The notes beneath the pieces were generated by a model. The model made no database searches. It saw nothing but the letters and a program-made list of their open reading frames with translations, and was not told the DNA's origin. DNA of 64,000 nt from positions 21,153 to 85,152 of the forward strand of contig CANCPC010000003.1 of NCBI GenBank assembly GCA_947379965.1, in the 5' to 3' direction. The translations under genes were made by a program, and so were the position numbers. The DNA is from Flavobacteriaceae bacterium (GTDB taxonomy: Bacteria; Bacteroidota; Bacteroidia; Flavobacteriales; Flavobacteriaceae). Every line of letters begins with the position of its first letter. Positions within the stretch are counted from its first letter, which is position 1. This document shows, in pieces, positions 1 through 17,559 of this stretch.

Positions 1-36
1 AAAATTGCAACGAATCTTTTTGTAAAGGTGGTTTAA
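1..36. repeat. Left copy of direct repeat bounding the five-gene cassette
   Basis: ttgcaacgaatctttt at 5-20 is identical to 7211-7226, with similarity continuing (gtaaaggt/gtgaaggt...ttaa). Confidence 0.7.
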
Positions 37-605
37 TTTATAAATAATATTCTTTCGATTGTCCAATATAAAGCAATACATCCAATCAAGCTAGAAATAG
101 GGTAAACGACACGCTCTTTGTACCAATATTTGTTGCTAAACCATTTTCCGATCAAAAAATAAACACTTAAAATCACAGTAATTTGTCCTAATTCGACACC
201 CAAATTGAACGACAACAACGAACTTAAAAATTGATTTTTTGGTAAGCCAATTTCCTTTAAGGCATTGGCAAAACCCATTCCGTGAATGAATCCAAATCCA
301 AAAATCAAGAAAATTCTCCAAGGATTTAGTTTGTTGTGTAAGATATTTTCTACTGCTGTAAAAAGGATTGAAGCTGCAATTAATGGTTCTATTATTGTGG
401 CATTAGGCATGATGAATCCGGCTGCTGCCAATCCCAAAGACAAACTATGAGCCAAGGTGAAAACAGAACATTGAATGAGCACCGTTCTCCTATTCGAACT
501 CAAAAAAAACAAGCTTATAATAAATAGAATATGGTCGAAACCTAGCGGGATTACATGGGAAAATCCCAATTGTAAATAGTAGATTAGTGTTTCAAAATAA
601 GACAT
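33..605 (-). CDS. HupE/UreJ family membrane protein (putative metal binding/uptake)
   Basis: Multi-TM 190 aa; motifs GFSHVIPLGFDHILF, FTLAHSLSL, FGFIHGMGFA, FNLGVELGQ. Confidence 0.9.
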   Translation of the reverse strand: MSYFETLIYYLQLGFSHVIPLGFDHILFIISLFFLSSNRRTVLIQCSVFTLAHSLSLGLAAAGFIMPNATIIEPLIAASILFTAVENILHNKLNPWRIFLIFGFGFIHGMGFANALKEIGLPKNQFLSSLLSFNLGVELGQITVILSVYFLIGKWFSNKYWYKERVVYPISSLIGCIALYWTIERILFIN

Positions 606-1807
606 TATTCTTTGAAGAGTTTGATGGTTGTAGTTGATTTATCCTTTATTCTTAAGAAATAAACACCTTTTGTCAAAGCCGAGAAATCTTGTTTTTCGAT
701 TGTTGGGCCAGTATATATTAATTTTCCGAAAGAAGAATATAATTCATAATTTTCGTTTCCTGTATTGGGTTTTAAATGGATGGTCGATTGAAATGGATTG
801 GGAAATACTTGAATCAAAGAATCAATCTTTTCTTGATTCACCGATAATGTTGGATTCCCTTTGACACAAATTACATAATTAGTATTTGTTTTCGCATCAT
901 AAGTTGTAATTCCGAATTGTGTACTCCAATACCAAGCACTATTTGGGTTTTGTGTGTTGGGTTTAAGTGATGTTGAAGACCAGTAGTTTTTGACACCTAA
1001 ATTTTGAAAATAAGGAGAAAAAATCGATGGACTTACTGCGGATTCATTATTCAAAGATTGCAATTCCTTGATATTTGGTAGTCTCCAATCTGATGCGTTT
1101 CCTAACGAAAGACCTTCGGCATAAGTCAAGGCTTGTTCCCAAGTTAAAGCAGATGCATTTGGCACTTTCTGCCAAATGAGTTGCGTTAAATTATCTTTAA
1201 TAGTTCCGTCTAAATTGTCAGTAAAATGATTCGTAATTGTCGCGGGTGTGGTTCTATTTCGGACAGCTCGAACATTATATCTAAATGTACCACCAACTTC
1301 ACCAATTGCTTCAGATTTTGGTTTATTACCAATTCCACCACCTGCATTGGTACACCATACTTTTGAAATATCGCCAAATTGAGTCGTATTGGTCCACCAA
1401 TACTCAGCGACTAAAGTGCTTGAAGATGAGAAAAATGAGGTGTTAATGGCTGGATTTCCATTTTGAAGAATCATAATGCTAAAAGCCTCCATTGGCGTAG
1501 GTAATCTCCAATCGGTAAAATTGGCTAATGTCAAGTTATCACAATAGGTTATAGCTGAAGCATAATTCATTGAGCCACCATCCACTTTTTGCCACATCAA
1601 TCCTGTAATAATATCCGTTATTGTTCCATCTCCATTATCGAAATATGAGGGTGTATTAATAGCATAATCGTGGTCTTCGCCAAAGGTTGACGTGTAACTT
1701 GTTGTTTGCCCAGTATCTGGTAATAACTGAATTGTTCTTGATATGCTTTGTCCAAAAATAAGGACCGAATTGAAAAGTAATAATCCTAAAAGAAGCTGTT
1801 TTTTCAT
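605..1807 (-). CDS. Tandem DUF1566 (Lcl C-terminal-like) domain protein with T9SS sorting domain
   Basis: Signal peptide; two DNxDGTIxDxxTxLxWQK...DWRLP...YWS/W...V(R/I)(A/C)V units; tail VFPNP...GVYFLRI...IKLFKE. Confidence 0.85.
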   Translation of the reverse strand: MKKQLLLGLLLFNSVLIFGQSISRTIQLLPDTGQTTSYTSTFGEDHDYAINTPSYFDNGDGTITDIITGLMWQKVDGGSMNYASAITYCDNLTLANFTDWRLPTPMEAFSIMILQNGNPAINTSFFSSSSTLVAEYWWTNTTQFGDISKVWCTNAGGGIGNKPKSEAIGEVGGTFRYNVRAVRNRTTPATITNHFTDNLDGTIKDNLTQLIWQKVPNASALTWEQALTYAEGLSLGNASDWRLPNIKELQSLNNESAVSPSIFSPYFQNLGVKNYWSSTSLKPNTQNPNSAWYWSTQFGITTYDAKTNTNYVICVKGNPTLSVNQEKIDSLIQVFPNPFQSTIHLKPNTGNENYELYSSFGKLIYTGPTIEKQDFSALTKGVYFLRIKDKSTTTIKLFKE

Positions 1808-1818
1808 TTTATAAATTA

Positions 1819-3474
1819 TTATTTAACTAAAATCTTTTTTGTTACAAGATAATTAGGAAACTGAATTCTAACTAAATACGTTCCGTGTGAAAGGTTTTTG
1901 ATGTCGATAGTTGGTTTATAATGCAATGTTTTTGAAATCAATTCCCCTTTTAATCCAAAAATCGAAATCGACTGAACATCGCTTTCTGCAAGATTGTTTT
2001 TCAATTTAACATTCAAAATATCAGTAGCAGGATTTGGATATAGGATAATGTTTGTGTCATTCAGGGCAAAATCTGATAATCCTAAATTCGGAACCGTACA
2101 TTGTGAAAAGCCATTATAATTTGTAGTTGTTGTTCCTGTTGGCGAAACATAGTTAAAAGTATACGTTGTTCCGCTCCAACTAAAATTCGTGGCATAACCC
2201 GGAACGCCGTTTAGACTATAAGATAAATTATAACCATTGTTGTTTGAATTGGCAACACAAGAAGTGATTAATGCTCCTGCCAATGGAGTTAAATTTCCTC
2301 CTCTCATTGAGCTCGCTTGTGCTTGTGGTATAAGTTGTTTATTTGCGTCTTCAGTAACTACTCCCACCATATTGACTATCATCAGTGGATTACTTCCATT
2401 GGCGTTTGCCGTACCATGATAGTGATATACACCATTAGTTCCGTAATGACCGTGATTGCCATCAAGTGTTGCCATAGCTGAACCATCGGGCTCTAAACCT
2501 CCATAAACTGCAAATCCGTCTAAGCCAAAAGCAATTGGCAAATTGGCAGTTGTTTGTCCTGATGAAATCAAATGTAAGGGTGCGGTATGATAATGATAAT
2601 CATCCCCTTTGCCGCAATGCCCACCATATTTATCCAATTGCCCAGTAGCATAAGAATCTGCTCCTGAGGTGGTATAAAGATTAAAAATAGCCACTCCATT
2701 TGCGGCAATGGCAATAGCGCCAATACTAAAATGATCTTTATTTACAGGAACCGGAGTTGCGGCAATTTCTGGGTTTAATGGAATACTCCATGCATTTTGA
2801 TTACCCGATTTATTGGTAAAGGTACTTATATAACATTGTGGAATAGGTACTTGTTGTTGCCAGCCACCACTTGCTATTCCTACCATCATGGTGTGATTGG
2901 GAATACCTTTTGAATTTACATAGAAATAAGTTGCATCATACGAAGTGCTCACCGTTGATTTAAAAGGGATAAATGCCGAGTTTATAAAAGCAGGGTCTGT
3001 AGTTGTTATAGCTTTTTTTGCAAAACCATACAAAACCATTACACTTCCAACGGAAATAATTGGAATTATATAGGTTAATTTTTTCTTGTTAGTATAAGTA
3101 AACAGGAAAGTACCAAACAAAAACATTAAAATGGAAATGAGCCCCAACTTTTTATTCCAAATCGATTGAATTTCTTCCTCCGAAGTTTTGTTTCTAGCTG
3201 TTATATCATTGTTTATTTTATTGACCCATTCGCTTTTCTTCAAAGCAAATTTTTGGTCTTCTATAGAGAAAGAGGAAATAGGAAAATGGACTATTTTGTC
3301 ATTAGCATCTTCAATGTATATAATACCATTTTTCAGCATATAAAAACTTCCATCTACAAACTGATTTTCTTTTTCTAATTTCCAATGACGCAACACTACA
3401 TTGTCATAATTGATAGTATGCGAAAAAGCATAATCGACATATAAAAAAAGCAAAATAATCAGTATTTTTTTCAT
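1819..3474 (-). CDS. YHYH domain protein with N-terminal SHD1-like domain, two hydrophobic helices and T9SS sorting domain
   Basis: GGHCGKGDDYHYH and HGHYG...YHYHG motifs; N-terminal RHW...VDGSF...PISSFSIEDQKF; tail LYPNPA...GTYLVRI...KKILVK. Confidence 0.85.
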   Translation of the reverse strand: MKKILIILLFLYVDYAFSHTINYDNVVLRHWKLEKENQFVDGSFYMLKNGIIYIEDANDKIVHFPISSFSIEDQKFALKKSEWVNKINNDITARNKTSEEEIQSIWNKKLGLISILMFLFGTFLFTYTNKKKLTYIIPIISVGSVMVLYGFAKKAITTTDPAFINSAFIPFKSTVSTSYDATYFYVNSKGIPNHTMMVGIASGGWQQQVPIPQCYISTFTNKSGNQNAWSIPLNPEIAATPVPVNKDHFSIGAIAIAANGVAIFNLYTTSGADSYATGQLDKYGGHCGKGDDYHYHTAPLHLISSGQTTANLPIAFGLDGFAVYGGLEPDGSAMATLDGNHGHYGTNGVYHYHGTANANGSNPLMIVNMVGVVTEDANKQLIPQAQASSMRGGNLTPLAGALITSCVANSNNNGYNLSYSLNGVPGYATNFSWSGTTYTFNYVSPTGTTTTNYNGFSQCTVPNLGLSDFALNDTNIILYPNPATDILNVKLKNNLAESDVQSISIFGLKGELISKTLHYKPTIDIKNLSHGTYLVRIQFPNYLVTKKILVK

Positions 3475-3500
3475 TTTGTTAGGGTTTATGGTTGCGAAAA

Positions 3501-5216
3501 TTATCTTTTAAGAATCATTTTTCCGGATTTTATTTCCTTAGTTTCACCCTGGATTCTATACAGGTAAACACCATCAGCAAGATCTGTTCCAAAGGAATCT
3601 TTCCCATCCCAAATGATTTGTTGTTTGCCTTGATTGACTCTATTTCCGTTGATAAGTTGTCTTACATTTTGTCCGGCTTGATTATAAATTGATAAATATA
3701 ATTTTTCAGGGTTTTCTAATAAAAATTCAATTGTAGTTTCTTTTGAAAAAGGATTTGGATACACAATTTCGTCGGCATAATTACTATTCCAAATTAAAGG
3801 AAAATTTACACCTAAATTATAGCAATTGTTAGTACCAATAAAATAACTAGAGGAAACATCTTTATTATGTCTAGTTGCAGTTTCGGTTGTGGGCAAATAG
3901 GTTCTAACATATTCTGTTTGAACCCCTGAAGGATTAACCGTAACCCGAATATGACCCGAATTAGGTAAAATGGTTCCTTCTAAATATCCGTAAGTTGTTG
4001 CATAGGTTGCGCTTGTGTAATTGGGATGGCTTGGTTGAGGTGTTTCTTGGTAAACCAAACAATCTTTTTCTTGTTTTCCAAAAAAATGATCGTGACCGTG
4101 AAAAAAAATGGTCACTTTATTTTCTGTCAAAAGGTCTTTTATAGGTTTGTACCATCCAGTTCTATTGGCTGCAAAACCCTCTGTTCCGTCGAGATTTTTA
4201 CCACCCCATTCGTATAAATTGGCAAATTCTACACCACCGCGACCATCTGGATCTCCACCAATTATTTGATGAGAAAAAACAAATTTAAATTTGGCGGTAC
4301 TATTTTCTAAAGTTGTTTTAAGCCAATTGTATTGTGTTAATCCAAGTGTCCATCGCCAACCAGTTGTAGCCGTTGGTTTTGGTGAAGTATACCAATAAGG
4401 GTCAATGACTATAAATAAAGCATCACCCCATTGCCAAGCATAATAATTTTCGCGTTGACCGATGAAATTATGGTTGGTCAAATCACCAGTGTAAAAACTA
4501 TCTGGAGCCGGATTTAAAAAATATTTTTTTCGTTCATTTGAATTCCAAACAGCAATGTTTTCGGAAGTTCCATTCAAATTCCAACCGGATTCTCCTTCAT
4601 GATTTCCTAATGCAATAAACAACGGTACCGAATGGGAGGATATTTCATATTTAGACCGCAACAATTTACATCGATAGGGTATTGTGTCTTTAGGGATTTT
4701 ATTGGTAGTTAAGTTTTTCAATTTATCAGTCATTAAAAAATCGCCTAAATCAATCATAAAATCAGGATTATCTTCCAGCTGATTTTGCAAGCATCTTTCA
4801 TAAACGGCAAGTGAGCTTTGTTCGTCCATGTGAGGATCTGCTTGAACCACAAACGAAAAGCTACTGCCTACAGCTCGTTGAGTATGAAAATTGTGCTCTG
4901 TTCTAGTTATAAAACTTGAGGAACTAGGCTGACGATAACACATTCTGTAAAAATATTTAGTGTCCGCTTGCAGATTCGAAACGATGATTTCTGCAGGTTC
5001 ATTTGCCGCAAAGACTTGCCAAGCAGTTTGGTTTGGATAATTTCCAGATACTATGCCATATTGTATACAAACCTCTACCGAAGCATCAAAAAATGCTTGA
5101 ACAGTGATGCTGTTATTTGTTGGGCGACCTACTATTTCGTTTTGAATAATATTTTGTGCATTCATTACACGCAAACCTATAAATAACAAAAAACATAAGA
5201 ATATAAATTTTTTCAT
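3501..5216 (-). CDS. Secreted calcineurin-like metallophosphoesterase with FN3-like N-domain and FlgD-Ig/T9SS tail
   Basis: ADPH, GDF, GNHE, FSH, GHDH motifs; tail YPNPF...WDGKD...GVYLYRI...GKMILKR. Confidence 0.88.
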   Translation of the reverse strand: MKKFIFLCFLLFIGLRVMNAQNIIQNEIVGRPTNNSITVQAFFDASVEVCIQYGIVSGNYPNQTAWQVFAANEPAEIIVSNLQADTKYFYRMCYRQPSSSSFITRTEHNFHTQRAVGSSFSFVVQADPHMDEQSSLAVYERCLQNQLEDNPDFMIDLGDFLMTDKLKNLTTNKIPKDTIPYRCKLLRSKYEISSHSVPLFIALGNHEGESGWNLNGTSENIAVWNSNERKKYFLNPAPDSFYTGDLTNHNFIGQRENYYAWQWGDALFIVIDPYWYTSPKPTATTGWRWTLGLTQYNWLKTTLENSTAKFKFVFSHQIIGGDPDGRGGVEFANLYEWGGKNLDGTEGFAANRTGWYKPIKDLLTENKVTIFFHGHDHFFGKQEKDCLVYQETPQPSHPNYTSATYATTYGYLEGTILPNSGHIRVTVNPSGVQTEYVRTYLPTTETATRHNKDVSSSYFIGTNNCYNLGVNFPLIWNSNYADEIVYPNPFSKETTIEFLLENPEKLYLSIYNQAGQNVRQLINGNRVNQGKQQIIWDGKDSFGTDLADGVYLYRIQGETKEIKSGKMILKR

Positions 5217-5226
5217 CTTGGAAAAA

Positions 5227-6897
5227 TTAATGTTTGATGATAATTTTTTGAGTATATTTTTTTACAGAATCTAGTTTTAAAAAGTAAATTCCATCGGGTA
5301 TATTGACGGTGTTAATTTCACTAGAATCAAATTCTAAAACCTTTTCACCAAGAGTATTGATCAATGCTCCATGTAGATTTGTAGTTGCATCAACAAATTG
5401 AACATATAGTTTGTCATTTACCGGGTTTGGAAATGTTCGAATAGAATCCTCAGGTTTAGAATTATTAACAGCTAAAGCACAAGTGCCAATTGTATAACTA
5501 AAGGCAACTTCGCCATTGGGATGCGCAATAGTTGCATCTGCAGGCATAAAGGCTTTTACATAATCAACTTTTACGCAGCTTGGAGTTACATTTACTCTAA
5601 TATGTCCGGTACCATTCATTGCATTTCCATTTGGATACGCTCCAGCATTTGCCGTATACCCTATGTTATAGGAGATATCGCTTGGCATAGGTACTTCTTG
5701 ATAAACGACTCCATTAAGTTCTTCTTTGGCAAATAGATGATCGTGTCCTTGAAAAAAAACATCCACACCAGTATCCACAAAAATCTGATGAATTGGTTTT
5801 CCCCAACCCGGTCTGTATGTATCAAATTTATATTGATTTCCATCTATTCCGCCCCATTCAAATTGTGTAGCTGTGGCAATTCCTCCTCTACCTTGACCCC
5901 TATTATGGTGTGCAAAGACAAATTTATGTTTTGCTGTACTGTTTTCTAATACACTTCGCATCCAGTTGTATTGTGTCTTCCCCAATGTCCAATCCCAGTT
6001 TGTTGGTTTTGCTGGATCTGCTGGAGTTGCACCTGGAGCAATTTCGGTACGATATACATCTAAAACAACAAAAAGCGCATCGCCCCAAGTCCAAGAATAA
6101 TAATTTTCAGGGGTATTGATTCCATAAGGTTCTACAACACTATTCCCGGTATAAAATGCATTTGGATAAGGATTTGGATAATAAAATTTTCTCCATTGCG
6201 TTCCCCAAACACCAATATTAAATGGAGGATTTTGATTAAGATAATAATCATTTTCACCTTCGTGATTCCCTAGGCAAATATAAAAAGGAACAGAATGACA
6301 AATTTGACCTAAATATTGTCTGTAATCTTTGTGTAAGGCATCCATATCAGTGCTTGTAGTGGTTGTAGGCGTGTGGTCATCTCCAAAAATATCACCTAAG
6401 GACAACATAAAATCAGGTTTATCTGCTGCTTGATTGGCCAAAGTGACTTGATACATAGATGGAATACCTTTCTTATCATAAAGATGTTCGTCTGATTCTA
6501 CTGTAAATGTAAATGAGTTTCCAGGGGATCGCTGAGTTTGAAAATTATATTCTGGAGTTGTATTAAAATTTGCCGTACCTGGATTTTTATACACCATTCG
6601 GTAAAAATACTTGCTATTGGATACTAAATTGGTAAGGTCTATTTCGTCGGGAGTTTTTGGGGAATTTGTAAAAGTGTTCGTAACCGAAGAATAAACACCA
6701 GAAAGAGTTCCGTATTCAATATAATAGTCTGTTGAAACATCAAACAAAATACTTGCAGTTACAGATGTATCCGTAGGCCTTCCTAGGATTATAAATTTTT
6801 CTTGACCAGACAAGCTTATACTATTACTAATAAAAAATAATATAAATAATGATTTGTAAAAGGGGGTTCCTATTTCTTTAAAAAATAATTTTTGCAT
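5227..6897 (-). CDS. Secreted calcineurin-like metallophosphoesterase with FN3-like N-domain and T9SS tail (paralog of 3501-5216)
   Basis: SDEH, GDI, GNHE, FAH, GHDH motifs; tail FPNPV...GIYFLKL...KIIIKH. Confidence 0.88.
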   Translation of the reverse strand: MQKLFFKEIGTPFYKSLFILFFISNSISLSGQEKFIILGRPTDTSVTASILFDVSTDYYIEYGTLSGVYSSVTNTFTNSPKTPDEIDLTNLVSNSKYFYRMVYKNPGTANFNTTPEYNFQTQRSPGNSFTFTVESDEHLYDKKGIPSMYQVTLANQAADKPDFMLSLGDIFGDDHTPTTTTSTDMDALHKDYRQYLGQICHSVPFYICLGNHEGENDYYLNQNPPFNIGVWGTQWRKFYYPNPYPNAFYTGNSVVEPYGINTPENYYSWTWGDALFVVLDVYRTEIAPGATPADPAKPTNWDWTLGKTQYNWMRSVLENSTAKHKFVFAHHNRGQGRGGIATATQFEWGGIDGNQYKFDTYRPGWGKPIHQIFVDTGVDVFFQGHDHLFAKEELNGVVYQEVPMPSDISYNIGYTANAGAYPNGNAMNGTGHIRVNVTPSCVKVDYVKAFMPADATIAHPNGEVAFSYTIGTCALAVNNSKPEDSIRTFPNPVNDKLYVQFVDATTNLHGALINTLGEKVLEFDSSEINTVNIPDGIYFLKLDSVKKYTQKIIIKH

Positions 6898-6921: not shown

Positions 6922-6949
6922 TATGACTTTTGTTTGTTAAAAAGGTTTA
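6922..6949 (-). promoter_or_regulatory. Putative ECF-sigma-type promoter of the five-gene cassette
   Basis: Minus strand TAAACC-N16-GTCATA about 25 bp upstream of the start at 6897; no canonical TAnnTTTG box seen nearby. Confidence 0.45.
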
Positions 6950-7206
6950 ATAAAACCTTACTTTTTTTCGATATTTTTTTAAAGAATTAAAAAATCAAAT
7001 AAATACAAGTCATGAACGTAGTTTATTATCCGATTGTAAGGGAATACTATTTACAAATTTTTAATAGTAAGATAGGGTTTTAATGGAATTTTAAAAGATA
7101 TTAATTTTAGAATTTAACAAAAATTATTTTGTAGTTTAAAATGCGATTTGAATAAATTAAAACTTTCAATTCTTCGACGAAAATTATAGTAAAAGCGAAT
7201 AAATAG

Positions 7207-7241
7207 AAATTTGCAACGAATCTTTTGTGAAGGTTTTTTAA
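7207..7241. repeat. Right copy of direct repeat bounding the five-gene cassette
   Basis: aaatttgcaacgaatcttttgtgaaggttttttaa matches positions 1-36. Confidence 0.7.
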
Positions 7242-7360
7242 CTGCAATTACAATCATCGCCACAGTTTTTGTCATTCTTTTTCTTTTTGAAAAAGAATTT
7301 TCTGAATAAGAAAATAACAGCTATTGCAAGGGTTAAATAGGCTAAAACATCTTGTATCAT
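7238..7360 (-). CDS. FeoB-associated Cys-rich membrane protein (40 aa; not in ORF track)
   Basis: MIQDVLAYLTLAIAVIFLFRKFFFKKKKNDKNCGDDCNCS*, starting 6 bp after the feoB stop: one TM helix, basic linker, Cys-rich tail. Confidence 0.88.
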   Translation of the reverse strand: MIQDVLAYLTLAIAVIFLFRKFFFKKKKNDKNCGDDCNCS

Positions 7361-7366
7361 AACGGT

Positions 7367-9469
7367 TTATTTAAGGATTTGGTATGCTATTAATGCTGCT
7401 ATGTATGCAAAACTACTCATAAAAAGTAGTTGTGCTAAAGGCCATTTCCAACTGTTGGTTTCTTTTTTTGTAACGGCTAAAGTACTGGCACATTGCATCG
7501 CAAAAGCATAAAATAATAATAACGAAATTCCAGAAGCAAAATTGAATATTTTCTCTCCTGTTACTGGATTAATTTCGGCTTTCATTTTGTCTTTTATTGT
7601 TTCGTCATTATCGCTTCCGCCAACGCTGTATATCGTAGCTAAAGTACCCACAAAAACTTCCCTTGCCGCAAACGAACTAATTATAGCAACGCCAATTTTC
7701 CAATCATAACCCAAAGGTGAAATCAATGGTTCGATTGTTTTTCCCATTATTCCAATATAAGAATGCTCTAATTTATAAGAAGCGACTTTGTTTTTGAGAT
7801 CTGCTGTTGAGAAGCCTATATTATTTCTTTTTGAAAGGATTACCGTTTCGGAATCATTGAATTTTTCGCTCGGACTATTCGAAGCCAGAAACCATAAAAC
7901 CACTGAAATGGCTAAGATAATTTTACCGGCGCCAAAAACGAAAGCTTTGGTTTTTTCAACAACATTTATCGCCACGTTTTTAAACATTGGCAATTTATAA
8001 TTGGGCATTTCGACCACAAAGAAGGTTTTGCATTTTAGTTTCAATACTTTATTTAGCACAAAGGAGGAGAATATTGCCATCCCAAAACCTATTAAATACA
8101 ACAACATCAAAGTCATCCCTTGCATATTTATAAATCCAAAAATGCGTTTATCGGGTATTACAAGTCCAATAATAATGGCATAAACAGGTAATCTCGCGGA
8201 ACAAGTTGTAAACGGTGTTACCAGAATAGTAATTAACCTTTCTTTCCAATTTTCGATGTTTCGGGTGGCCATAATTGCCGGAATCGCACAAGCTGTTCCG
8301 GAGATTAATGGCACAATACTTTTGCCAGAAAGTCCAAAATTCCGCATGATTTTATCCATCAAAAAAACTACACGACTCATATAACCGCTTTCTTCAAGAA
8401 TAGAAATGAATAAAAAAAGAAAGGTAATTTGTGGAATAAATATCAAAATTCCACCAATTCCGGGGATGATTCCTTGAGCAATCAAATTGGTGAAAGCTCC
8501 TGGAGGAAGACTTTCGCTAGCCAAATTACTGAAGGATGCAAAAGTTTGGTCGATGTAGTCCATCGGGATTTTTGACCATTCGAAAATAGATTGAAAAATA
8601 CTCGATAATATGAAAAAGAAAATTAAATAACCCCAAAATTTATGTGTTAAAACCCTGTCTAGCTTGCTTCTAAAATCAGTTGCAATTGAAAAATCTATTT
8701 TTTGACCTATTTTTAAAGTGTCATTTATAAATTGGTATCTTTTGATGGTTTCCTTTTGTTGTAGTCTTTTTATCTCGGAATTTGTTTTTGTAAACGAGTT
8801 GCTATGAATTGCTTTTCTATTTAAATCCACAAAATTTACATCTTGTGTAATTACTAGCCAAAGTTTGTATAATGACTGATTGGGAAATGTTTTTCGAAGA
8901 GTATCAAAATAGGCGTCATCAATAGAAGATGCATTTAAGCATGGTTCTATAGAAATTGTTTTGTAAGTTGTTATTGTGTTTTTTAGTTCTTCAATTCCAA
9001 CTCCTTTTCGAGAACTTACAAGTACAATTTTAGTTTTTAATTGAGATTCTAAAAACGGAATATCCAATGAAATCCCTTTAAGTTTCATTCTGTCAATCAT
9101 GTTAATGACAAGAATGGTTGGTATTTCAAGATCTTTTATTTGGGTGAAAAGCAATAAATTTCGCTTCAAATTTTCTACTTCAGCAATTACTACAATCACA
9201 TCGGGAAAAAGTTTATCGTTTTTGTTTAGCAGAAGTTCAATAACTACATTTTCATCGGCAGAGCTAGCATTAAGACTATAAGTTCCTGGTAAATCTACTA
9301 TATTTGCATGAATTGTATTGGATAATTTGCAAAAACCAACTTTCTTTTCGACCGTAATTCCGGGATAATTTCCCACTTGTTGATTCAAGCCTGTAAGCTG
9401 GTTGAAAACGGAAGTTTTCCCAACATTAGGATTCCCGATTAATGCGACATTGATGTTTTGCTTGCTCAT
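7367..9469 (-). CDS. feoB: Ferrous iron transport protein B
   Basis: GNPNVGKT, NYPGITVE, DLPG GTPase motifs; LEESGYMSR, CSARLPVY, AAREV membrane motifs. Confidence 0.97.
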   Translation of the reverse strand: MSKQNINVALIGNPNVGKTSVFNQLTGLNQQVGNYPGITVEKKVGFCKLSNTIHANIVDLPGTYSLNASSADENVVIELLLNKNDKLFPDVIVVIAEVENLKRNLLLFTQIKDLEIPTILVINMIDRMKLKGISLDIPFLESQLKTKIVLVSSRKGVGIEELKNTITTYKTISIEPCLNASSIDDAYFDTLRKTFPNQSLYKLWLVITQDVNFVDLNRKAIHSNSFTKTNSEIKRLQQKETIKRYQFINDTLKIGQKIDFSIATDFRSKLDRVLTHKFWGYLIFFFILSSIFQSIFEWSKIPMDYIDQTFASFSNLASESLPPGAFTNLIAQGIIPGIGGILIFIPQITFLFLFISILEESGYMSRVVFLMDKIMRNFGLSGKSIVPLISGTACAIPAIMATRNIENWKERLITILVTPFTTCSARLPVYAIIIGLVIPDKRIFGFINMQGMTLMLLYLIGFGMAIFSSFVLNKVLKLKCKTFFVVEMPNYKLPMFKNVAINVVEKTKAFVFGAGKIILAISVVLWFLASNSPSEKFNDSETVILSKRNNIGFSTADLKNKVASYKLEHSYIGIMGKTIEPLISPLGYDWKIGVAIISSFAAREVFVGTLATIYSVGGSDNDETIKDKMKAEINPVTGEKIFNFASGISLLLFYAFAMQCASTLAVTKKETNSWKWPLAQLLFMSSFAYIAALIAYQILK

Positions 9470-9475
9470 TTCAGC

Positions 9476-9709
9476 TTATTGTTCAATAATTTCAACTTCA
9501 ATTTCACTAGCAGTTTCAATACGAATTGCAAGATGTGAACCGTTTATATCTAAATATAACGGATCGCCAAAAGGGGCAATTTGAAGTAATTGAACCTGAT
9601 TTCCAGGCAAACAGCCCATCTCCAATAGTTTTAACGGAATGGCCTCAACATCAAAATTGATGATGATTGCTTTATCCCCTTTTTTTAAGCTGGCTATTGT
9701 AGTTTGCAA
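9476..9709 (-). CDS. feoA: Ferrous iron transport protein A (TTG start)
   Basis: LLEMGCLPG...APFGDP...LAIR FeoA signature; directly upstream of feoB. Confidence 0.95.
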   Translation of the reverse strand: MQTTIASLKKGDKAIIINFDVEAIPLKLLEMGCLPGNQVQLLQIAPFGDPLYLDINGSHLAIRIETASEIEVEIIEQ

Positions 9710-9783: not shown

Positions 9784-10458
9784 CTAATTTTTTTCGTCTT
9801 CTAAAAGCCAATTAATATCTTCGATTAAGCGTGTCATTTCTTCTTTTTTTGTACCGTCATAAAAGCCACGAACGCGTCTTTTAGCATCTACAAGAACAAA
9901 GTTTTCAGTGTGAACCATGTCGTATAATTCGTCTGGTTTTCCTTGTTTTACGGCCAAATAGGATTTTCTAGCCATGGTATAAATCGCTTTTTTGTCGCCT
10001 GTAACTAAGTTCCATTTGCTATCGATCACACCATTTAATTTGGCATACGCTTTCAAAGCGGGAACATCGTCAGTATCCGGAAGAACAGAATGAGATAGCA
10101 ACATTACCTTTGGATTATGAAGAAATTCTTTTTGAATTTCCACCAAATTAGTTGTCATTTTTGGGCAAATAGAGCCACAAGTGGTGAAGAAAAAGTCGGC
10201 CACATAAATCTTCCCTTCGTAGTTTTTTTGGGTGATAGTTTTTCCGTTTTGATTGGTAAACGAAAAATCGGCAATATGGTGTTTGTTCGCAATATATTGT
10301 ATCGTAGAATCTACTAATTCAGGGTTTACATCCGCAGGATTGTAAATTGGTAAGCTTTTTATAGGCTTCAAGGCCGAATAAAATAAGGATAGGACAACGA
10401 CTGAAAACACTAAAAACCCAATAATGAATTTTCGGTATTGGTATAAAAGAGACTTCAT
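9784..10458 (-). CDS. SCO1/SenC family copper chaperone
   Basis: FFFTTCGSICP (CxxxC) and conserved His in MVHTENFVLVD; N-terminal TM; start moved to MKSLL. Confidence 0.93.
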   Translation of the reverse strand: MKSLLYQYRKFIIGFLVFSVVVLSLFYSALKPIKSLPIYNPADVNPELVDSTIQYIANKHHIADFSFTNQNGKTITQKNYEGKIYVADFFFTTCGSICPKMTTNLVEIQKEFLHNPKVMLLSHSVLPDTDDVPALKAYAKLNGVIDSKWNLVTGDKKAIYTMARKSYLAVKQGKPDELYDMVHTENFVLVDAKRRVRGFYDGTKKEEMTRLIEDINWLLEDEKN

Positions 10459-10589
10459 ATGAATATTTTGCTGCAAAAATACGAAATGACTTTTGATTTA
10501 AATTATAACCAAGTTGTTTTCGAATGAATTGGGGTTTTAATTAAAAAATTATGAATATTTTTGTGAGTATAACCAATCCCTTAAAACTA

Positions 10590-12653
10590 ATGAAAATAAA
10601 TTTCAATAAACAGTTATTTTTCGTAATTCCTGCAATCTTAGGGTTTACTTCTTCGCAAGCACAGAACACCCCAGCGAGTAAAGAACCAGGAATTAATGTT
10701 TCGTATATGGATACGAAAGTAAGACCAAACGATGATTTTTTCAGATTTGTAAACGGAACTTGGTTTGATAAAACCCAAATTCCAAATGACAAAACCTCTT
10801 GGGGAAGCTTCAACGAATTGCGTAAAAAAACAGATATTGATGCTTTGAATATTTTGAAAGAAGCGGCCAAAAACCCAAAATATAAATCGAATACTGATCA
10901 GGGTAAAGCCGTAAATCTTTATAAAACGGTTATGGATACCGTTAGTCGAAATAAACAAGGTCTGTCTCCGCTAAAACCCTATTTGGCCAAAATTAACGCC
11001 GTAAAAAATAGTAAAGATTTACAAGCTTTGTTAATTGAAATGGAACCATATGGAGGTATTGGTTTTTTTGGCGTTGGTATAGATGCAGATGCAAAAAATA
11101 GTAACAGAAATGTGATTTCTGTTGGTCCAGCAAGTTTAGGTTTACCGGATCGTGATTATTATGTTTCTGATGATAAAGACTCGAAAGAAAAGCGAGAAAA
11201 ATATGTTTTGCATGTAGCTAGAATGCTTCAGTTTCTGGGAGAAAAACCATTGAAAGCAAATACAGATGCTGCAACAATTTTAGCATTTGAAATAGCATTA
11301 TCTAAACCAAGATTTGATAGAGTAGAAAGACGCGACCGCAGAAAATCATATAATCCGATGAAGGTTTCCGATCTGCAGAAACTTACTCCTACAATAGATT
11401 GGAACACTTACTTGACAAATGTGGGTCTAAAAAATGTAGATTCTTTAATTGTTTCGCAACCTAAATATATGTCTGCTTTAGAGACAATTTTCAAAGAAAA
11501 TAAAGTAGAAGATTGGAAAACTTATTTGCGTTGGAACTTGTTAAACCAATCAACAAACTCATTAACAACGGATATTGAGTATGCTAACTGGGAGTTTTAT
11601 GGAAAAACGTTGACAGGAGCAATCAAACAAAGAGCGCGTGACGAAAGAGCTTTGCAAGTAATAAATGGTTCGGTTGGGGAAGCGCTTGGGAAATTATATG
11701 TAGAAAAAATGTTTCCGGCTGAAGCCAAAGAGAAAGCAGGAAAAATGATTAAGAATGTTTTTCTAGCCTTCGAAAACCGCATCAATAACTTGCCATGGAT
11801 GTCTCCAGATACTAAGAAAAGTGCGATTGAAAAACTTCAAAAATCAACTATAAAAATAGGTTATCCTGATAAGTGGAAAGATTATTCTGCTTTAACTTTG
11901 AAAAGCCCAGAAGATGGAGGGACGTATTTTGAGAACTCGAAAAATCTTGCAAAATGGAGTTTTCAAGAAGATTTAGACAAGCGATTTAAACCAGTAGACA
12001 AAACCGAATGGGGAATGTCGCCACAAACTGTAAATGCGTATTACAATCCTTCCTATAACGAAATTGTGTTTCCAGCAGCAATTCTGCAACCGCCTTTTTA
12101 TAATTATCAAGCCGATGAAGCCGTTAATTATGGTGGAATTGGAGCCGTTATTGGTCATGAAATCTCTCATGGTTTTGATGATTCGGGTGCGCGTTACAAT
12201 GCCGATGGCAACTTGAAAGATTGGTGGACAGCCGATGATTTAAAACAATTCACTGCATTGACAGGTGCACTTGCCACACAATATAGCGCTTTGCAACCTT
12301 TGCCAGGAATTTTTGTTGACGGGAAATTTACTTTGGGAGAAAATATAGGTGATTTAGGCGGAGTAAATGCTGCTTATGATGGATTACAACTTTATTTAAA
12401 AACCAATGGCAATCCCGGTTTAATTGATGGTTTTACACCAGAACAACGTTTCTTTATTTCTTGGACAACCGTTTGGCGAACAAAAACTCGGGACGAAGCC
12501 ATAAAAAATAGTGTCAAAACGGATCCACATTCTCCAGGAATGTATCGTGCTTATGTTCCTTTACAAAATGTAGATTCGTTTTATGAAGCTTTCAAACTTC
12601 AACCCGGCGACGGAATGTATCTTGCGCCAGAGAAACGAGTAAAAATTTGGTAA
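10590..12653 (+). CDS. pepO: M13 family zinc metallopeptidase (PepO/neprilysin-like)
   Basis: VNAYY, HEISH, GENIGD, DPHSP motifs; signal peptide from MKINF. Confidence 0.93.
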   Translation: MKINFNKQLFFVIPAILGFTSSQAQNTPASKEPGINVSYMDTKVRPNDDFFRFVNGTWFDKTQIPNDKTSWGSFNELRKKTDIDALNILKEAAKNPKYKSNTDQGKAVNLYKTVMDTVSRNKQGLSPLKPYLAKINAVKNSKDLQALLIEMEPYGGIGFFGVGIDADAKNSNRNVISVGPASLGLPDRDYYVSDDKDSKEKREKYVLHVARMLQFLGEKPLKANTDAATILAFEIALSKPRFDRVERRDRRKSYNPMKVSDLQKLTPTIDWNTYLTNVGLKNVDSLIVSQPKYMSALETIFKENKVEDWKTYLRWNLLNQSTNSLTTDIEYANWEFYGKTLTGAIKQRARDERALQVINGSVGEALGKLYVEKMFPAEAKEKAGKMIKNVFLAFENRINNLPWMSPDTKKSAIEKLQKSTIKIGYPDKWKDYSALTLKSPEDGGTYFENSKNLAKWSFQEDLDKRFKPVDKTEWGMSPQTVNAYYNPSYNEIVFPAAILQPPFYNYQADEAVNYGGIGAVIGHEISHGFDDSGARYNADGNLKDWWTADDLKQFTALTGALATQYSALQPLPGIFVDGKFTLGENIGDLGGVNAAYDGLQLYLKTNGNPGLIDGFTPEQRFFISWTTVWRTKTRDEAIKNSVKTDPHSPGMYRAYVPLQNVDSFYEAFKLQPGDGMYLAPEKRVKIW

Positions 12654-14567: not shown

Positions 14568-15116
14568 TCAAGCTGTTAGCTTTAGTATTTTCGCTATTGA
14601 TATTCTATCCTTTTTTGTAACAATTTGCTTGCGTTCTTTTTGGGCAATTTCTTTATCGTCTTTGTTGATGAGGTAATTCAAGGCTTCATAAATGTCACTA
14701 AATTTTTTGTCGTATTTGGTTTCTATTTCCATTAATTTAGCATTGAATTCTTTGTGTTCCAGAGCATATCTTCGTATCATAACAAAAGTTCTCATTATAG
14801 CAATATTCACATTTAGGGCCACTTCCGAATTTAAAACCCCGCTAAGCATAGCAACTCCTTGTTCAGTAAAAGCAAAAGGCGTTACAATTATGTTTCTTTT
14901 ATTTTGGTATGCGGTCACAATTTGTGACCGCATACTTTCCCATTCTTCAATAGTTAATCGAAACATAAAATCAACAGGAAATCTCTTGATATTTCTTTTG
15001 ACGGCTTGGTTTAAAACTTTTGTTTCTACTTCGTAAAGCATTGCCAAATCAAAGTCAAGTATGACTTTTTGACCTCGAATGTTAACTATTTTAGATTGTA
15101 ATGTTGCTAATTCCAA
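14568..15116 (-). CDS. ORF6N domain DNA-binding protein (TTG start; C-terminus probably frameshifted)
   Basis: RGQKVILDFDLAMLYEVETKVLNQAVKRN..RFP.DFMF, RSQIVT, PFAFTEQGVAMLSGVL. Confidence 0.9.
   Translation of the reverse strand: MELATLQSKIVNIRGQKVILDFDLAMLYEVETKVLNQAVKRNIKRFPVDFMFRLTIEEWESMRSQIVTAYQNKRNIIVTPFAFTEQGVAMLSGVLNSEVALNVNIAIMRTFVMIRRYALEHKEFNAKLMEIETKYDKKFSDIYEALNYLINKDDKEIAQKERKQIVTKKDRISIAKILKLTA
14907..14935. repeat. Perfect 29-bp palindrome inside the ORF6N coding sequence
   Basis: gtatgcggtcacaa-t-ttgtgaccgcatac, 14-bp perfect arms. Confidence 0.95.
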
Positions 15117-15132
15117 ATTAGGTTATTTATGT

Positions 15133-15165
15133 TAATATGTCAACACAATTTGTGACGACATATTA
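15133..15165. promoter_or_regulatory. Imperfect 33-bp palindrome upstream of ORF6N gene sharing its core with the intragenic palindrome (putative operator)
   Basis: taatatgtcaacacaa-t-ttgtgacgacatatta; core cacaatttgtgac identical to 14916-14928. Confidence 0.6.
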
Positions 15166-17559
15166 CTATTTTTTCAAACTATCTTTCACTACTGTTACGC
15201 TATCTTTTTTTATAACAAATCTATTTCTAGTGTTCAAAGGTTTTACTTCAACTACTCTCGCAATTGCTTTTATTTTCTGATTAATAACCACAGCATCATT
15301 CATTACGAATGGCGTTGGCATCATCCAATTGGCTCTTTTTGCCATCGAAAACAACGGATTATTCATCAAATCGAAAGAGCTTTCCATTAGATCCATATCC
15401 AAAACGCTCGTAGTTTTTATATTAAATTCCATTTCCAGCGGAAGTTGATCTACCACATAATAGCTCAACAATTTTTTGCCTTTTCGTTCGTAAACAGCTC
15501 CTTTCTGACCTAATAGCGATATGCCATTGGCTTTAAAATTTTGAATATCTAAATCTTCATTGGCAAAAATATCATACCGATTTACTTTTCTGTTGGGAGT
15601 AATTCGAATTTTTAAATAACGATTGGTCTCAGAAACACTGTCTTTCAGAAATTCGATGGTGGGTCTGGCGATGTTTTTCAATGGCGCATCAGCCATAAAT
15701 GTAAATGCAGTATTGTACTTGCTTTTCAAAGGATTAGCATTTAAACCGTTGGCTATTTTTGGATTTTGTCCTAAATAACCGCGTGTCCATTCATCAAGAT
15801 TGGTGTCGTAAGTTGTCCAAACTGCTTTGTTGGTATTGGCATCAAGTAGGTACAATAAACTATTCGATTTGGCTTTTCCTGGTTCATAATTCGATAGATA
15901 ATGTGCTTTTGCAAAGAAACCAATAGCAGCAATAAATAGGAAAAATGACCATTTCTTTTTTCGAGCAAACGAACCAAAAAGAGGCAATAACAAACCAAAA
16001 ACTAAAGCAGTTAAAATGGCACTCCCGAATAATAATTTTAATCCCAAACCTATCGGAAACATATGAATAAGTGGTGCAATAAGAAACAATGCTGGAATAC
16101 TTAAAACAAGATTCAGGATTGGTTTTGATTTTTGGGTTATGATAAACGAAGCCAACATAATCAATCCTGAAAACACAGGAAGAATCAAAAATCCTGCGCC
16201 TTTCAGTTTCAAACCAATAACAAAATTAATAATAATCCAAATAAATAATGGAGCGATAGAATGGTTTATCGTTGCTTTTTTGGCAGAGAAGCGTTGATAA
16301 AAAACAAAACAAATAGATAAACTCAAAAGTATAAAAGCAATAATGTACGAATGTCCATTGTAGGTAAATCCGTTGAGTAAATCGTTGTATTGCGGATAGA
16401 CTTTTAGCAATAATTTCCATCCAAAAAAAGTGATCAATCCGGAGGTAATCATTGCGCTCAAAAACGGAATAAACCCTTTTGTCATTTCTTGAAATGATAA
16501 AATTCGTTTGGCCAAACCAAAGAAAATCAAAATCACAAAAAGTATAAATGCAAGAATCACCATAGGTAAAACCCATGCAAATGGATAACTTATAAAAGTA
16601 AATGGAATCGTAAAATAAACATCATCATTTTTATTTTTGGTAGTTTTTAAATCGGTATTCGAAAAGTAATTTAGCAATGGCATCAAGTAAGTTCCTTGAT
16701 GTTCTAGTGTATTAGTGCTCAAATGATGGAGATTGTCTTGAGCAGAATGGTAATTGTAATGTCCGTCAATAAAGGCAAAATTGTAGCCTTGAATATTACC
16801 TTGTTCTCTAAAAACGGTTAGATCGGTATCATTGGGAAGCATTTTATAAATACTGTACATCAAAGAATTTGAAACCGGATATTTCGTATTTGCAGCGGCG
16901 AATTCTTTCACAAGTCCACTATTTCCTTCATTGGTTTCCATCAACATATAACTGGGTCCTGAAGAACCGCGCGCTTCAAAATTGAGCACCAAACCCACTT
17001 CTTTTGCCCATTTATGTTGCGTTACAAAAAGAGCAGCACCGTTCAAACCTAATTCTTCGCCGTCCGTAAACAGAATAATGATGTCGTTTTTGTGTTGTTT
17101 TTTATTATAAATAAAAGCACGAACACTTTCGAGAATTGTCGCCACCCCAGAACCAGCATCACTTGCGCCTTTTGAAGCCGAATGTGGCGCGCTATCATAA
17201 TGCGAAAGTAACAGCAATGCTTTATCATTGTTAGTCCCTTTTATCCGAGCCATAACATTCTTGCATTTGGTCAATGTTCCCCAATCCGAAAAGGAAAAAC
17301 CTTCCTGAATCGAAGTTTTCAAACCCATTTTTTGTAATTCATTTTGAAGATAATTCGCAACGTCTTCATGATTTTCGGAACCTACAAAATGTGGCTTTTT
17401 CGAAATATTTTTTACTTGTTCTAAAGCTCTTTTGGTAGAAAATTCCGAAAGTGGAACGTCATTAGAAGTAATAATGTGGGGCATCATTGTAGCGAAAACA
17501 AATCCAAGAATTACGAGGATAAATAACGCAGAAAAAACAGAGGAAATGTTTTTTTTCAT
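15166..17559 (-). CDS. Membrane-bound M28 family metallopeptidase
   Basis: SHYDS, GASDAGSG, DGEE, NFEARG, NDTD, YHS motifs followed by multi-TM region; start moved to MKKNISS. Confidence 0.92.
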   Translation of the reverse strand: MKKNISSVFSALFILVILGFVFATMMPHIITSNDVPLSEFSTKRALEQVKNISKKPHFVGSENHEDVANYLQNELQKMGLKTSIQEGFSFSDWGTLTKCKNVMARIKGTNNDKALLLLSHYDSAPHSASKGASDAGSGVATILESVRAFIYNKKQHKNDIIILFTDGEELGLNGAALFVTQHKWAKEVGLVLNFEARGSSGPSYMLMETNEGNSGLVKEFAAANTKYPVSNSLMYSIYKMLPNDTDLTVFREQGNIQGYNFAFIDGHYNYHSAQDNLHHLSTNTLEHQGTYLMPLLNYFSNTDLKTTKNKNDDVYFTIPFTFISYPFAWVLPMVILAFILFVILIFFGLAKRILSFQEMTKGFIPFLSAMITSGLITFFGWKLLLKVYPQYNDLLNGFTYNGHSYIIAFILLSLSICFVFYQRFSAKKATINHSIAPLFIWIIINFVIGLKLKGAGFLILPVFSGLIMLASFIITQKSKPILNLVLSIPALFLIAPLIHMFPIGLGLKLLFGSAILTALVFGLLLPLFGSFARKKKWSFFLFIAAIGFFAKAHYLSNYEPGKAKSNSLLYLLDANTNKAVWTTYDTNLDEWTRGYLGQNPKIANGLNANPLKSKYNTAFTFMADAPLKNIARPTIEFLKDSVSETNRYLKIRITPNRKVNRYDIFANEDLDIQNFKANGISLLGQKGAVYERKGKKLLSYYVVDQLPLEMEFNIKTTSVLDMDLMESSFDLMNNPLFSMAKRANWMMPTPFVMNDAVVINQKIKAIARVVEVKPLNTRNRFVIKKDSVTVVKDSLKK

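Follow-up and report, generated by a model that had tools for sequence, protein, structure and literature searches.

The 64-kb window analyzed here (64,000 nucleotides; positions 21,153 to 85,152 of contig CANCPC010000003.1 in the Flavobacteriaceae bacterium assembly GCA_947379965.1) opens with a five-gene cassette (nt 33-6897, minus strand) that encodes two metallophosphoesterases, a YHYH protein, a tandem Lcl_C (DUF1566) lectin-like protein, and a predicted permease of the HupE_UreJ_2 family. There is good support for viewing this cassette as an accessory, mobile, and horizontally shuffled type IX secretion system (T9SS) operon of freshwater Flavobacterium, which carries a promoter of the extracytoplasmic function (ECF) type and in which a YHYH/Lcl_C/HupE-UreJ-2 core is joined to exchangeable secreted enzymes. 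By analogy with the recently described anglerases, the core looks like a split unit for metal capture and transport. The role that we tentatively favor is metal capture and import coupled to the enzymatic release of metal, and in this cassette also of phosphate, from anionic organic matter.

The source genome comprises 2.76 Mb in 181 contigs and is 89% complete, and the sequencing runs that contain the stretch are of lake and freshwater metagenome DNA only. The nearest named homologs of the cassette proteins belong to Flavobacterium.

Gene content of the cassette

In order of transcription, the cassette encodes MPE1 (5227..6897; 556 aa), a metallophosphoesterase that resembles purple acid phosphatases (PAPs) and PhoD; its paralog MPE2 (3501..5216; 571 aa); the YHYH protein (1819..3474; 551 aa); the Lcl_C protein (605..1807; 400 aa); and the HupE_UreJ_2 (PF13795) predicted inner-membrane permease (33..605; 190 aa), which is without an N-terminal soluble domain. 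All five are minus-strand open reading frames (ORFs) with Pfam assignments, separated by 10, 26, and 11 nt and by one 1-nt overlap. An initial annotation made from the sequence had described five co-oriented genes with gaps of at most 26 nt and one overlap, which is borne out, and every protein family that it named was recovered with Pfam and NCBIfam. The unit ends with the permease gene because the next gene, which encodes a DtxR-type regulator, is convergent. Terminator-like sites did not exceed the expectation from shuffled sequence (6 versus 7.4).

The T9SS-like tails that had been noticed on four of the products proved to be genuine family members, with the T9SS type A sorting domain (NCBIfam TIGR04183; PF18962) scoring above its cut-off in MPE1, MPE2, and the YHYH and Lcl_C proteins. 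These four also begin with apparent signal peptides, whose cleavage sites were read by eye and, for the YHYH protein, with a crude pattern rather than with a predictor. The predicted mature N-terminus is Gln in MPE1, MPE2, and the Lcl_C protein, as is usual for secreted proteins of Bacteroidota, and His in the YHYH protein alone. Judged by their sorting domains, the first four cassette products are putative T9SS type A cargo, with export as the predicted outcome, and the genome encodes T9SS machinery (PorU, 1370 bits, contig C14; SprA, 2762 bits, contig C1). A PDB sequence search with the four cargo proteins returned nothing at E<0.01 except sorting-domain noise.

Both phosphoesterases retain a complete set of catalytic residues. 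MPE1 matches Pfam Metallophos (5.2e-09) and Por_Secre_tail (8.3e-09), with weak Pur_ac_phosph_N/PhoD signals, and MPE2, which is ~40% identical to MPE1 and alike in architecture, matches Metallophos (3.4e-10), PhoD (29.3 bits; cut-off 27), Por_Secre_tail, and FlgD_ig. The calcineurin-like motifs DxH, GD, GNHE, H, and GHxH are all present, and the canonical metal ligands D136, H138, D169, N211, H212, H330, H385, and H387 are invariant in 19 sequences, with both MPEs intact. For an AlphaFold2 (AF2) model of MPE1 (pLDDT 71.5), the top structural hits are wheat purple acid phytase (6gj9) and Bacillus subtilis PhoD (2yeq), with E values of ~1e-17, and the wider Foldseek set (6gj9, 3zk4, 4dsy, and 2yeq) spans 1e-15 to 1e-17. 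Like the secreted PAP/phytase and PhoD enzymes, the window MPEs, which are predicted to be secreted, join an N-terminal beta-sandwich to a metallophosphoesterase domain. They differ by their motif I (DxH), by an identity of only 13-16%, by the T9SS tail, and by the absence of the tyrosine of PAP motif II (GDxxY), which gives the Fe(III)-tyrosinate center of PAPs. Motif II instead reads GDIFGDD in MPE1 and GDFLMTD in MPE2. Because this tyrosine is missing, both enzymes are PAP/PhoD-like in architecture but are not true PAPs, and we have ruled out that assignment.

Within the YHYH protein, a signal peptide (residues 1-18) precedes a mature first histidine (His1) and an SHD1-like domain (residues 19 to ~100), followed by two hydrophobic helices with a basic loop between them (residues ~110-150, nt ~3025-3147), the YHYH domain (residues ~160-470), a beta-rich stretch, and the T9SS C-terminal domain (residues 478-551). 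This architecture is kept in orthologs down to 52% identity. Pfam recognizes YHYH (PF14240; 2.7e-12, 47.5 bits, cut-off 25) and Por_Secre_tail (7.3e-14). Cleavage is predicted to follow YAFS and precede HT, and the mature His is kept in all long orthologs. About half of 150 representatives of the YHYH family similarly start with HPGGH, or something close to it, after a signal peptide ending in A. A profile of the N-terminal domain (N-domain) reached the yeast SLA1 SHD1 structure 2hbp in PDB at 2.6e-5, and Pfam SHD1 is found in 13 of 22 members.

The YHYH family is also reported to be prevalent in diatoms. Across the orthologs of the window protein, eight His and four acidic residues of the YHYH domain are invariant, as are its two YHYH motifs, DDYHYHTAP and GVYHYHGT. 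Taken with the mature N-terminal His, the eight invariant His can be read as hallmarks of metal binding. The domain model is of high confidence (pLDDT 91.9, pTM 0.91) and has no fold match in PDB, with no Foldseek match at E<=0.001 and nothing better in a wide VIA-align search than Z = 5.2 across 62 residues, which falls short of proof of a new fold. Our literature search found no functional paper on YHYH. A 2026 preprint lists the family among candidates for novel folds and predicts a 3-His Zn site (10.64898/2026.10.18.759936).

The two conserved hydrophobic helices would anchor the YHYH protein in the inner membrane if no cleavage took place. It would either be held at the inner membrane with an idle tail or be cut, and a hairpin inside a T9SS substrate bears on how this system handles membrane-tethered cargo. 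One unlikely but specific version of cleavage is that the protein splits itself, with the second hydrophobic helix acting as an internal signal peptide (cut after VLYGFA and before KKA). His1 and the SHD1-like domain would then stay in the inner membrane by the HupE/UreJ-2 permease, while the YHYH domain, with its eight His and putatively new fold, would be exported through the T9SS and serve outside the cell as a protein metallophore that gathers metal set free from complexes with organic matter by the co-secreted enzymes and returns it for import. In complex predictions for the permease with YHYH-protein residues 19-165, where the mark was 0.32, the scores were 0.49, 0.10, and 0.11, which speaks neither for nor against binding.

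The Lcl_C protein matches Pfam Lcl_C (PF07603; 1.9e-47, 160.8 bits) in two stretches and Por_Secre_tail at 1.5e-09. In Legionella, the Lcl C-terminal domain adopts a C-type-lectin-like fold and binds sulfated glycosaminoglycans (PMC11162425). The window protein shares the Pfam domain, in two copies, and differs from Legionella Lcl by being without a collagen-like region and by its predicted export through the T9SS rather than the type II secretion system (T2SS); a phmmer search with it found no PDB chain at E<0.01. The last gene had been described as encoding a His-containing HupE/UreJ membrane protein, and both parts of this description stand. Its product matches PF13795 at 2.9e-43 (147.7 bits; cut-off 24.5), and H17, D24, H25, H53, E73, H108, E138, and R185 are invariant in cassette orthologs and in the fused forms described below.

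Recurrence, module exchange, and gene fusions

Loci with orthologs were retrieved, and all cassette proteins were mapped on them by tblastn. Full-length YHYH orthologs occur in 15 of the 150 sampled species of the genus. The complete set of five families, in unchanged order, is carried by L003 (from the cultivable Flavobacterium sp. N1994; CP109999), L004/5, L010, L011, and L012, and L013 and L018 are partial, with the proviso that several loci are from related species and are not independent. The initial annotation had proposed a neighborhood search and had made its case depend on these families co-occurring in other genomes; with five further loci in the same order, its proposal was not refuted on this point. 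The pairing of YHYH with HupE/UreJ to which it had drawn attention also recurs, as the two genes lie within one cluster in nine loci and the two families are joined in two fused architectures.

The recurrent core consists of YHYH, often a 407-aa T9SS protein, Lcl_C, and usually HupE_UreJ_2. The Lcl_C gene is downstream of YHYH, either directly or past the 407-aa protein, in most loci (the order differs in L020), and Lcl_C was not seen in L015, L016, and L022. HupE_UreJ_2 is absent from the loci that combine YHYH, Lcl_C, and sulfatases and from L009. The 407-aa protein, which we call T9x, has a T9SS tail and no Pfam family, and in most related cassettes its gene separates YHYH from Lcl_C. It is present in L004 (11614-12837), L010, L012, L014, L015, L017, L018, and L020, where it is upstream of YHYH, and it is missing from the window.

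The enzymes that accompany this core are exchanged from locus to locus. The MPE pair is swapped for a T9SS-tailed multicopper oxidase and an AhpC/TSA redoxin in L014, L015, and L017, and T9SS-tailed sulfatases are found in L006/7, L008, L010, L012, L019, L020, and L021, with L020 also encoding an FGE-type enzyme. We found nothing useful in the literature on T9SS multicopper oxidases. Because the phosphoesterases can be replaced in these ways, phosphate represents one exchangeable module, and the view of the phosphoesterases as an obligate partner is not supported. In a maximum-likelihood tree of YHYH proteins, the phosphoesterase-type (type A) cassettes fall in three separate clades, and the sister of the window protein comes from a locus of the sulfatase type (support 98/96). 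This splitting of the phosphoesterase-type cassettes indicates that enzyme modules have been shuffled on the core.

Fusion proteins link the same families. An exhaustive search with the YHYH domain gave 1036 cluster representatives (clusters at 50% identity), and Pfam domains in the best 88 of these include Por_Secre_tail (24), PEBP (15), EF-hands (8), and SHD1 (7). YHYH is fused to Lcl_C in P0128, P0136, P0173, and P0229, and a form with two Lcl_C copies was seen. Other single chains combine YHYH, PEBP, Metallophos, and a sorting domain, or SHD1, YHYH, EF-hand, and Metallophos, and a 2336-aa protein joins YHYH, sulfatase, Metallophos, and Lcl_C. In P0228 and P0170, one chain carries the N-domain, HupE_UreJ_2, and YHYH in this order, such that a six-helix permease stands where the window YHYH protein has its two-helix hairpin, and the N-domain of P0228 aligns with that of the window protein (E 4e-4). 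Thus, four of the five cassette families are joined by Rosetta-stone fusions. YHYH is also fused to GH29 fucosidase with F5/8 type C and to lectin-like domains. The neighborhoods of distant YHYH homologs are heterogeneous, containing PEBP, DUF305/DUF4142, a chromate transporter, and an ECF sigma gene.

Six of the related loci (L003, L004, L009, L013, L015, and L017) have, directly upstream of the cassette, a trio of genes for an ECF sigma factor, a 96-aa single-pass anti-sigma factor, and a membrane-anchored LTXXQ protein. The trio loci share a promoter-like element, CCAGA-N17-TCGTCTAA, before the sigma gene, and it appears again after the sigma gene in L004/5 and L009. We take this composition to resemble that of CnrYXH, given the three-part arrangement of sigma factor, ~95-aa anti-sigma factor, and LTXXQ/Metal_resist sensor. 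The trio differs from CnrYXH in its gene order and in its sensor, which is poor in His and does not reach the Metal_resist cut-off. The cassette-type trio was not found beside the window cassette or, with the queries used, elsewhere in the 89%-complete genome.

The only related trio found in the same genome is a 38%/29% paralog on contig C68, where it precedes a second YHYH gene (L030, 5990-10511). The order there is ECF sigma, a 103-aa ORF, a Metal_resist-like protein, a 253-aa YHYH lipoprotein (lipobox LASC), MORN_2, SCO1/SenC, and a di-heme CCP_MauG peroxidase. This gene content connects YHYH, for a second time and independently, with an ECF/LTXXQ system and with genes of the copper type. 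Its layout also recalls the MauG-like/partner pairs of copper homeostasis.

Proposed metal capture and competing explanations

The closest known parallel to the core is provided by the anglerases Ang-1 and Ang-2 (Franco Cairo et al., Nat Commun 2025, PMC12537917), periplasmic domains that begin, once mature, with a metal-binding His and that share a chain with a permease of the HupE/UreJ-2 family (PF13795). Anglerases were shown to bind Cu, and in the case of Ang-1 also Ni/Co, and they were proposed to catch metal ions and pass them into the permease; among the known neighbors of Ang-2, metallophosphatases come first in frequency (PMC12537917). The window cassette likewise pairs a PF13795 permease, with conserved His in its helices, with a periplasmic domain that has a predicted mature His1. 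The H25-H53 spacing of the window permease (28) equals the His201-His229 spacing in the permease domain of MmAng-2a (PMC12537917). Furthermore, metallophosphatase neighbors are shared with Ang-2, and P0228 and P0170 share the order of N-domain then permease.

There are also differences. The window cassette has separate genes for the His1 domain and the permease, and the His1 domain is SHD1-like (~90 aa) and is followed by the two-helix hairpin, the large YHYH domain, and the T9SS tail. The window organism belongs to Bacteroidota, whereas Ang-1 is from Pseudomonadota and Ang-2 from Actinomycetota. In addition, the His1 domain has no detectable sequence similarity to the solved Ang-1 chain, which its profile failed to match in PDB. 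Because of this, we regard the likeness as a functional analogy with a shared permease family, in which homology of the capture domains is not established. The initial annotation knew of no characterized operon with this composition; this holds for the whole unit, but the idea of a HupE/UreJ-2 permease served by an N-terminal His was published in 2025 (PMC12537917). More distant relatives of the permease are the HupE/UreJ Ni/Co permeases of PF04955, such as Rhizobium leguminosarum HupE (as cited in ref. 26 of PMC12537917). The window permease has a weak Pfam match to this family (1.7e-08), an HxxxxGxDH-type motif in its first helix, and His/Glu in later helices; it differs by belonging to the sister family PF13795 and by having no hydrogenase or urease genes nearby.

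These likenesses suggest how the cassette might operate. The secreted enzymes would act on anionic organic matter (in this cassette, phosphate esters) in which transition metals are retained outside the cell, and both phosphate and metal would be released. The YHYH protein, presumably tethered to the membrane with His1 on its SHD1-like domain, then the two-helix hairpin, and then the His-rich YHYH domain, would bind this metal, either at the periplasmic face or at the cell surface, and the HupE/UreJ-2 permease would move it across the inner membrane. The lectin-like Lcl_C protein, also secreted, would accompany the YHYH protein and the permease. Candidate metals are Cu (from the multicopper oxidase variant and the SCO1 gene on C68), Fe/Mn (from the phosphoesterases and the insertion site), and Ni/Co (from the HupE family), and none can be singled out.

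Several observations weigh against metal capture and import, to which the lack of a match between the N-domain and Ang-1 must be added. The T9SS tail is left unexplained on a protein with two internal hydrophobic helices, and the fusions of YHYH to fucosidase and lectin-like domains fit a glycan-directed enzyme or binding module equally well. Generic HupE_UreJ_2 genes in 19 other genera had no cassette family nearby. The LTXXQ protein of the trio scores below the Pfam Metal_resist cut-off (24.3 versus 29.2) and has few His, and it may sense envelope stress rather than metal. Moreover, an ECF system that answers excess rather than scarcity would favor detoxification.

Among the other explanations, a locus for polymer degradation is doubtful but deserves consideration. 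The secreted enzymes would act on anionic organic matter such as organic phosphate or sulfated and phosphorylated glycans, with Lcl_C as a substrate-binding lectin, YHYH as a new metalloenzyme or binding module, and HupE/UreJ-2 in an ancillary role. Such a role would agree with the sulfated ligands of Legionella Lcl (PMC11162425), with phytase as the top structural match of the MPE1 model, and with the fusions of YHYH to fucosidase and F5/8 type C, sulfatase, Metallophos, and Lcl_C. It would also agree with L006/7, where YHYH, Lcl_C, and sulfatase genes lie within a polysaccharide utilization locus that includes GH88, GH2, lyases, and sulfatases. However, the HupE_UreJ_2-YHYH fusions, the conserved mature His, the variant with multicopper oxidase and redoxin, and the LTXXQ-type ECF trio would all be left unexplained, and the window has no SusC/SusD pair alongside the cassette. 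Somewhat less probable still is a defense against metal stress, induced by periplasmic metal excess, in which phosphate released by the secreted phosphoesterases precipitates metal at the surface, Cu(I) is detoxified where the multicopper oxidase variant is present, and metal is sequestered by YHYH and exported or buffered by HupE/UreJ-2. Multicopper oxidases are the classic enzymes of copper resistance, detoxification of this kind had been put forward in the initial annotation, and the CnrYXH-like trio directly upstream of six loci would suit it. Yet the trio is absent beside the window cassette, its sensor stays under the Metal_resist cut-off, it is not obvious how the sulfatase variants would detoxify, and those HupE and HupE/UreJ-2 relatives that have been characterized are described as permeases for uptake (PMC12537917).

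The first reading in the initial annotation was cofactor loading, in which YHYH and HupE/UreJ-2 supply metal in the periplasm to the T9SS cargo metalloenzymes before export. Every exchangeable enzyme is indeed metal-dependent (binuclear phosphoesterases, multicopper oxidase, and Ca-dependent sulfatases), but these enzymes need different metals, yet the set of invariant YHYH His is the same across cassette types, and we judge cofactor loading to be quite improbable. We favor metal capture over it because enzymes that differ in their metal requirements share one His-rich protein, because YHYH fusions also include enzymes and domains that do not depend on metal, and because YHYH is fused to an uptake-type permease. 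Finally, these genes might form no functional unit and be neighbors by chance or through a shared secretion route only, as the heterogeneous neighborhoods of distant YHYH homologs and the generic HupE_UreJ_2 genes that stand alone might suggest. This we consider very improbable, since the recurrence of the same families in the same order in five other loci and their fusion in single proteins, which join four of the five families, place the grouping beyond chance, and the cassette moved as one block into the site between dtxR and feoB.

If metal capture and import is the correct explanation, freshwater Flavobacteria would own a portable kit that couples secreted hydrolases or oxidases to the capture of trace metals, and the turnover of organic phosphorus and sulfur in lakes would be linked to metal acquisition. 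The anglerase concept would then extend to Bacteroidota and to split, T9SS-linked forms. In any case, YHYH, a large family without known function, gains a concrete context through its tie to a HupE/UreJ-2 permease and through the N-terminal His that is typical of one recently described class of metal-capture proteins.

Promoter, insertion site, and flanking genes

The promoter-like motif of ECF type, TAAACC-N15-AGTCATA (6922..6949, minus strand), ends 24 nt upstream of the MPE1 start codon, and a regular-expression search over all loci found no other match in the window. The same 28-nt motif occupies the same place before MPE1 in L010, L011, and L012, has a hybrid form in L018, and precedes the sulfatase operon that holds YHYH and Lcl_C in L006/7. 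Genome-wide (2.76 Mb), there are 6 matches versus ~2.6 expected, the latter being an estimate from base composition. A pstS-associated match inside signal-peptide codons was taken as chance. Another match directly follows an orphan ECF sigma gene on contig C76, with an imperfect copy before that gene. The C76 sigma factor is 71-78% identical in five relatives, one of which has no cassette, and the motif after the gene is kept in three of the five. Judged from the position of the motif alone, the window cassette might be read by a resident ECF sigma factor, for which the C76 protein is a candidate. In this C76 region (L025, 5226-6732), the sigma gene encodes 180 aa and is followed by ORFs of 137 and 151 aa without family. 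On contig C13 (L026, 2293-2811), the motif lies 26 nt before a 154-aa ORF without a Pfam family, which may belong to the same regulon.

The initial annotation had placed the cassette downstream of SCO-feoA-feoB on the same strand, and this position is confirmed. SCO1 (9784-10476), feoA (9476-9709), and feoB (7367-9469), all assigned with Pfam, are on the minus strand and are followed by a 40-aa Cys-rich ORF (7240-7360, minus strand) with one hydrophobic helix and the C-terminus CGDDCNCS. A 340-nt gap separates this ORF from the start of the cassette. On the other side, past HupE_UreJ_2, lie convergent genes for a DtxR/MntR-type regulator with a C-terminal FeoA domain and for an NRAMP-Usp fusion. 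The last codons of the intact regulator gene, whose start is outside the window, occupy 1..37 (plus strand) and form the left arm of a direct repeat. Its right arm is a remnant copy of the dtxR 3' end at 7155..7245 (plus strand), which was found by alignment to L002:12102-12190, is ~80% identical to this true dtxR 3' end over ~95 nt, and adjoins the stop of the small ORF.

In the cassette-free relatives G303, G305, and G311, dtxR and the small ORF of feoB are convergent and only a few to ~50 nt apart. From these empty sites and the ~95-nt bracketing duplication of the dtxR 3' end, the cassette is, on the evidence of its junctions, a 7.2-kb insertion between two resident metal-homeostasis loci. 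For the same reasons, the operonic or functional link to feoAB implied by the initial annotation is unsupported and was rejected. A type B cassette adjoins feoAB in L015 (G337) in the opposite orientation, and thus the feoAB-adjacent site may be a hotspot for insertion. On the metagenomic contig L004, the cassette and its sigma trio lie between a tyrosine integrase gene and an RteC gene (3685-4947 and 14598-15452), and these flanks suggest carriage on an integrative element.

Some features of the flanking genes are kept more widely. The 40-aa ORF is retained 3' of feoB in relatives, with 54-68% identity in L035, L037, L040, and L041, and it is also present in L015. The NRAMP protein with a C-terminal universal stress protein domain (630 aa) and the DtxR-type gene that follows it (L002, 9560-12189) form a pair that is kept in many species of the genus. 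Divergent from SCO1-feoAB, the window encodes a 700-aa M13 family metallopeptidase (10551-12653, plus strand).

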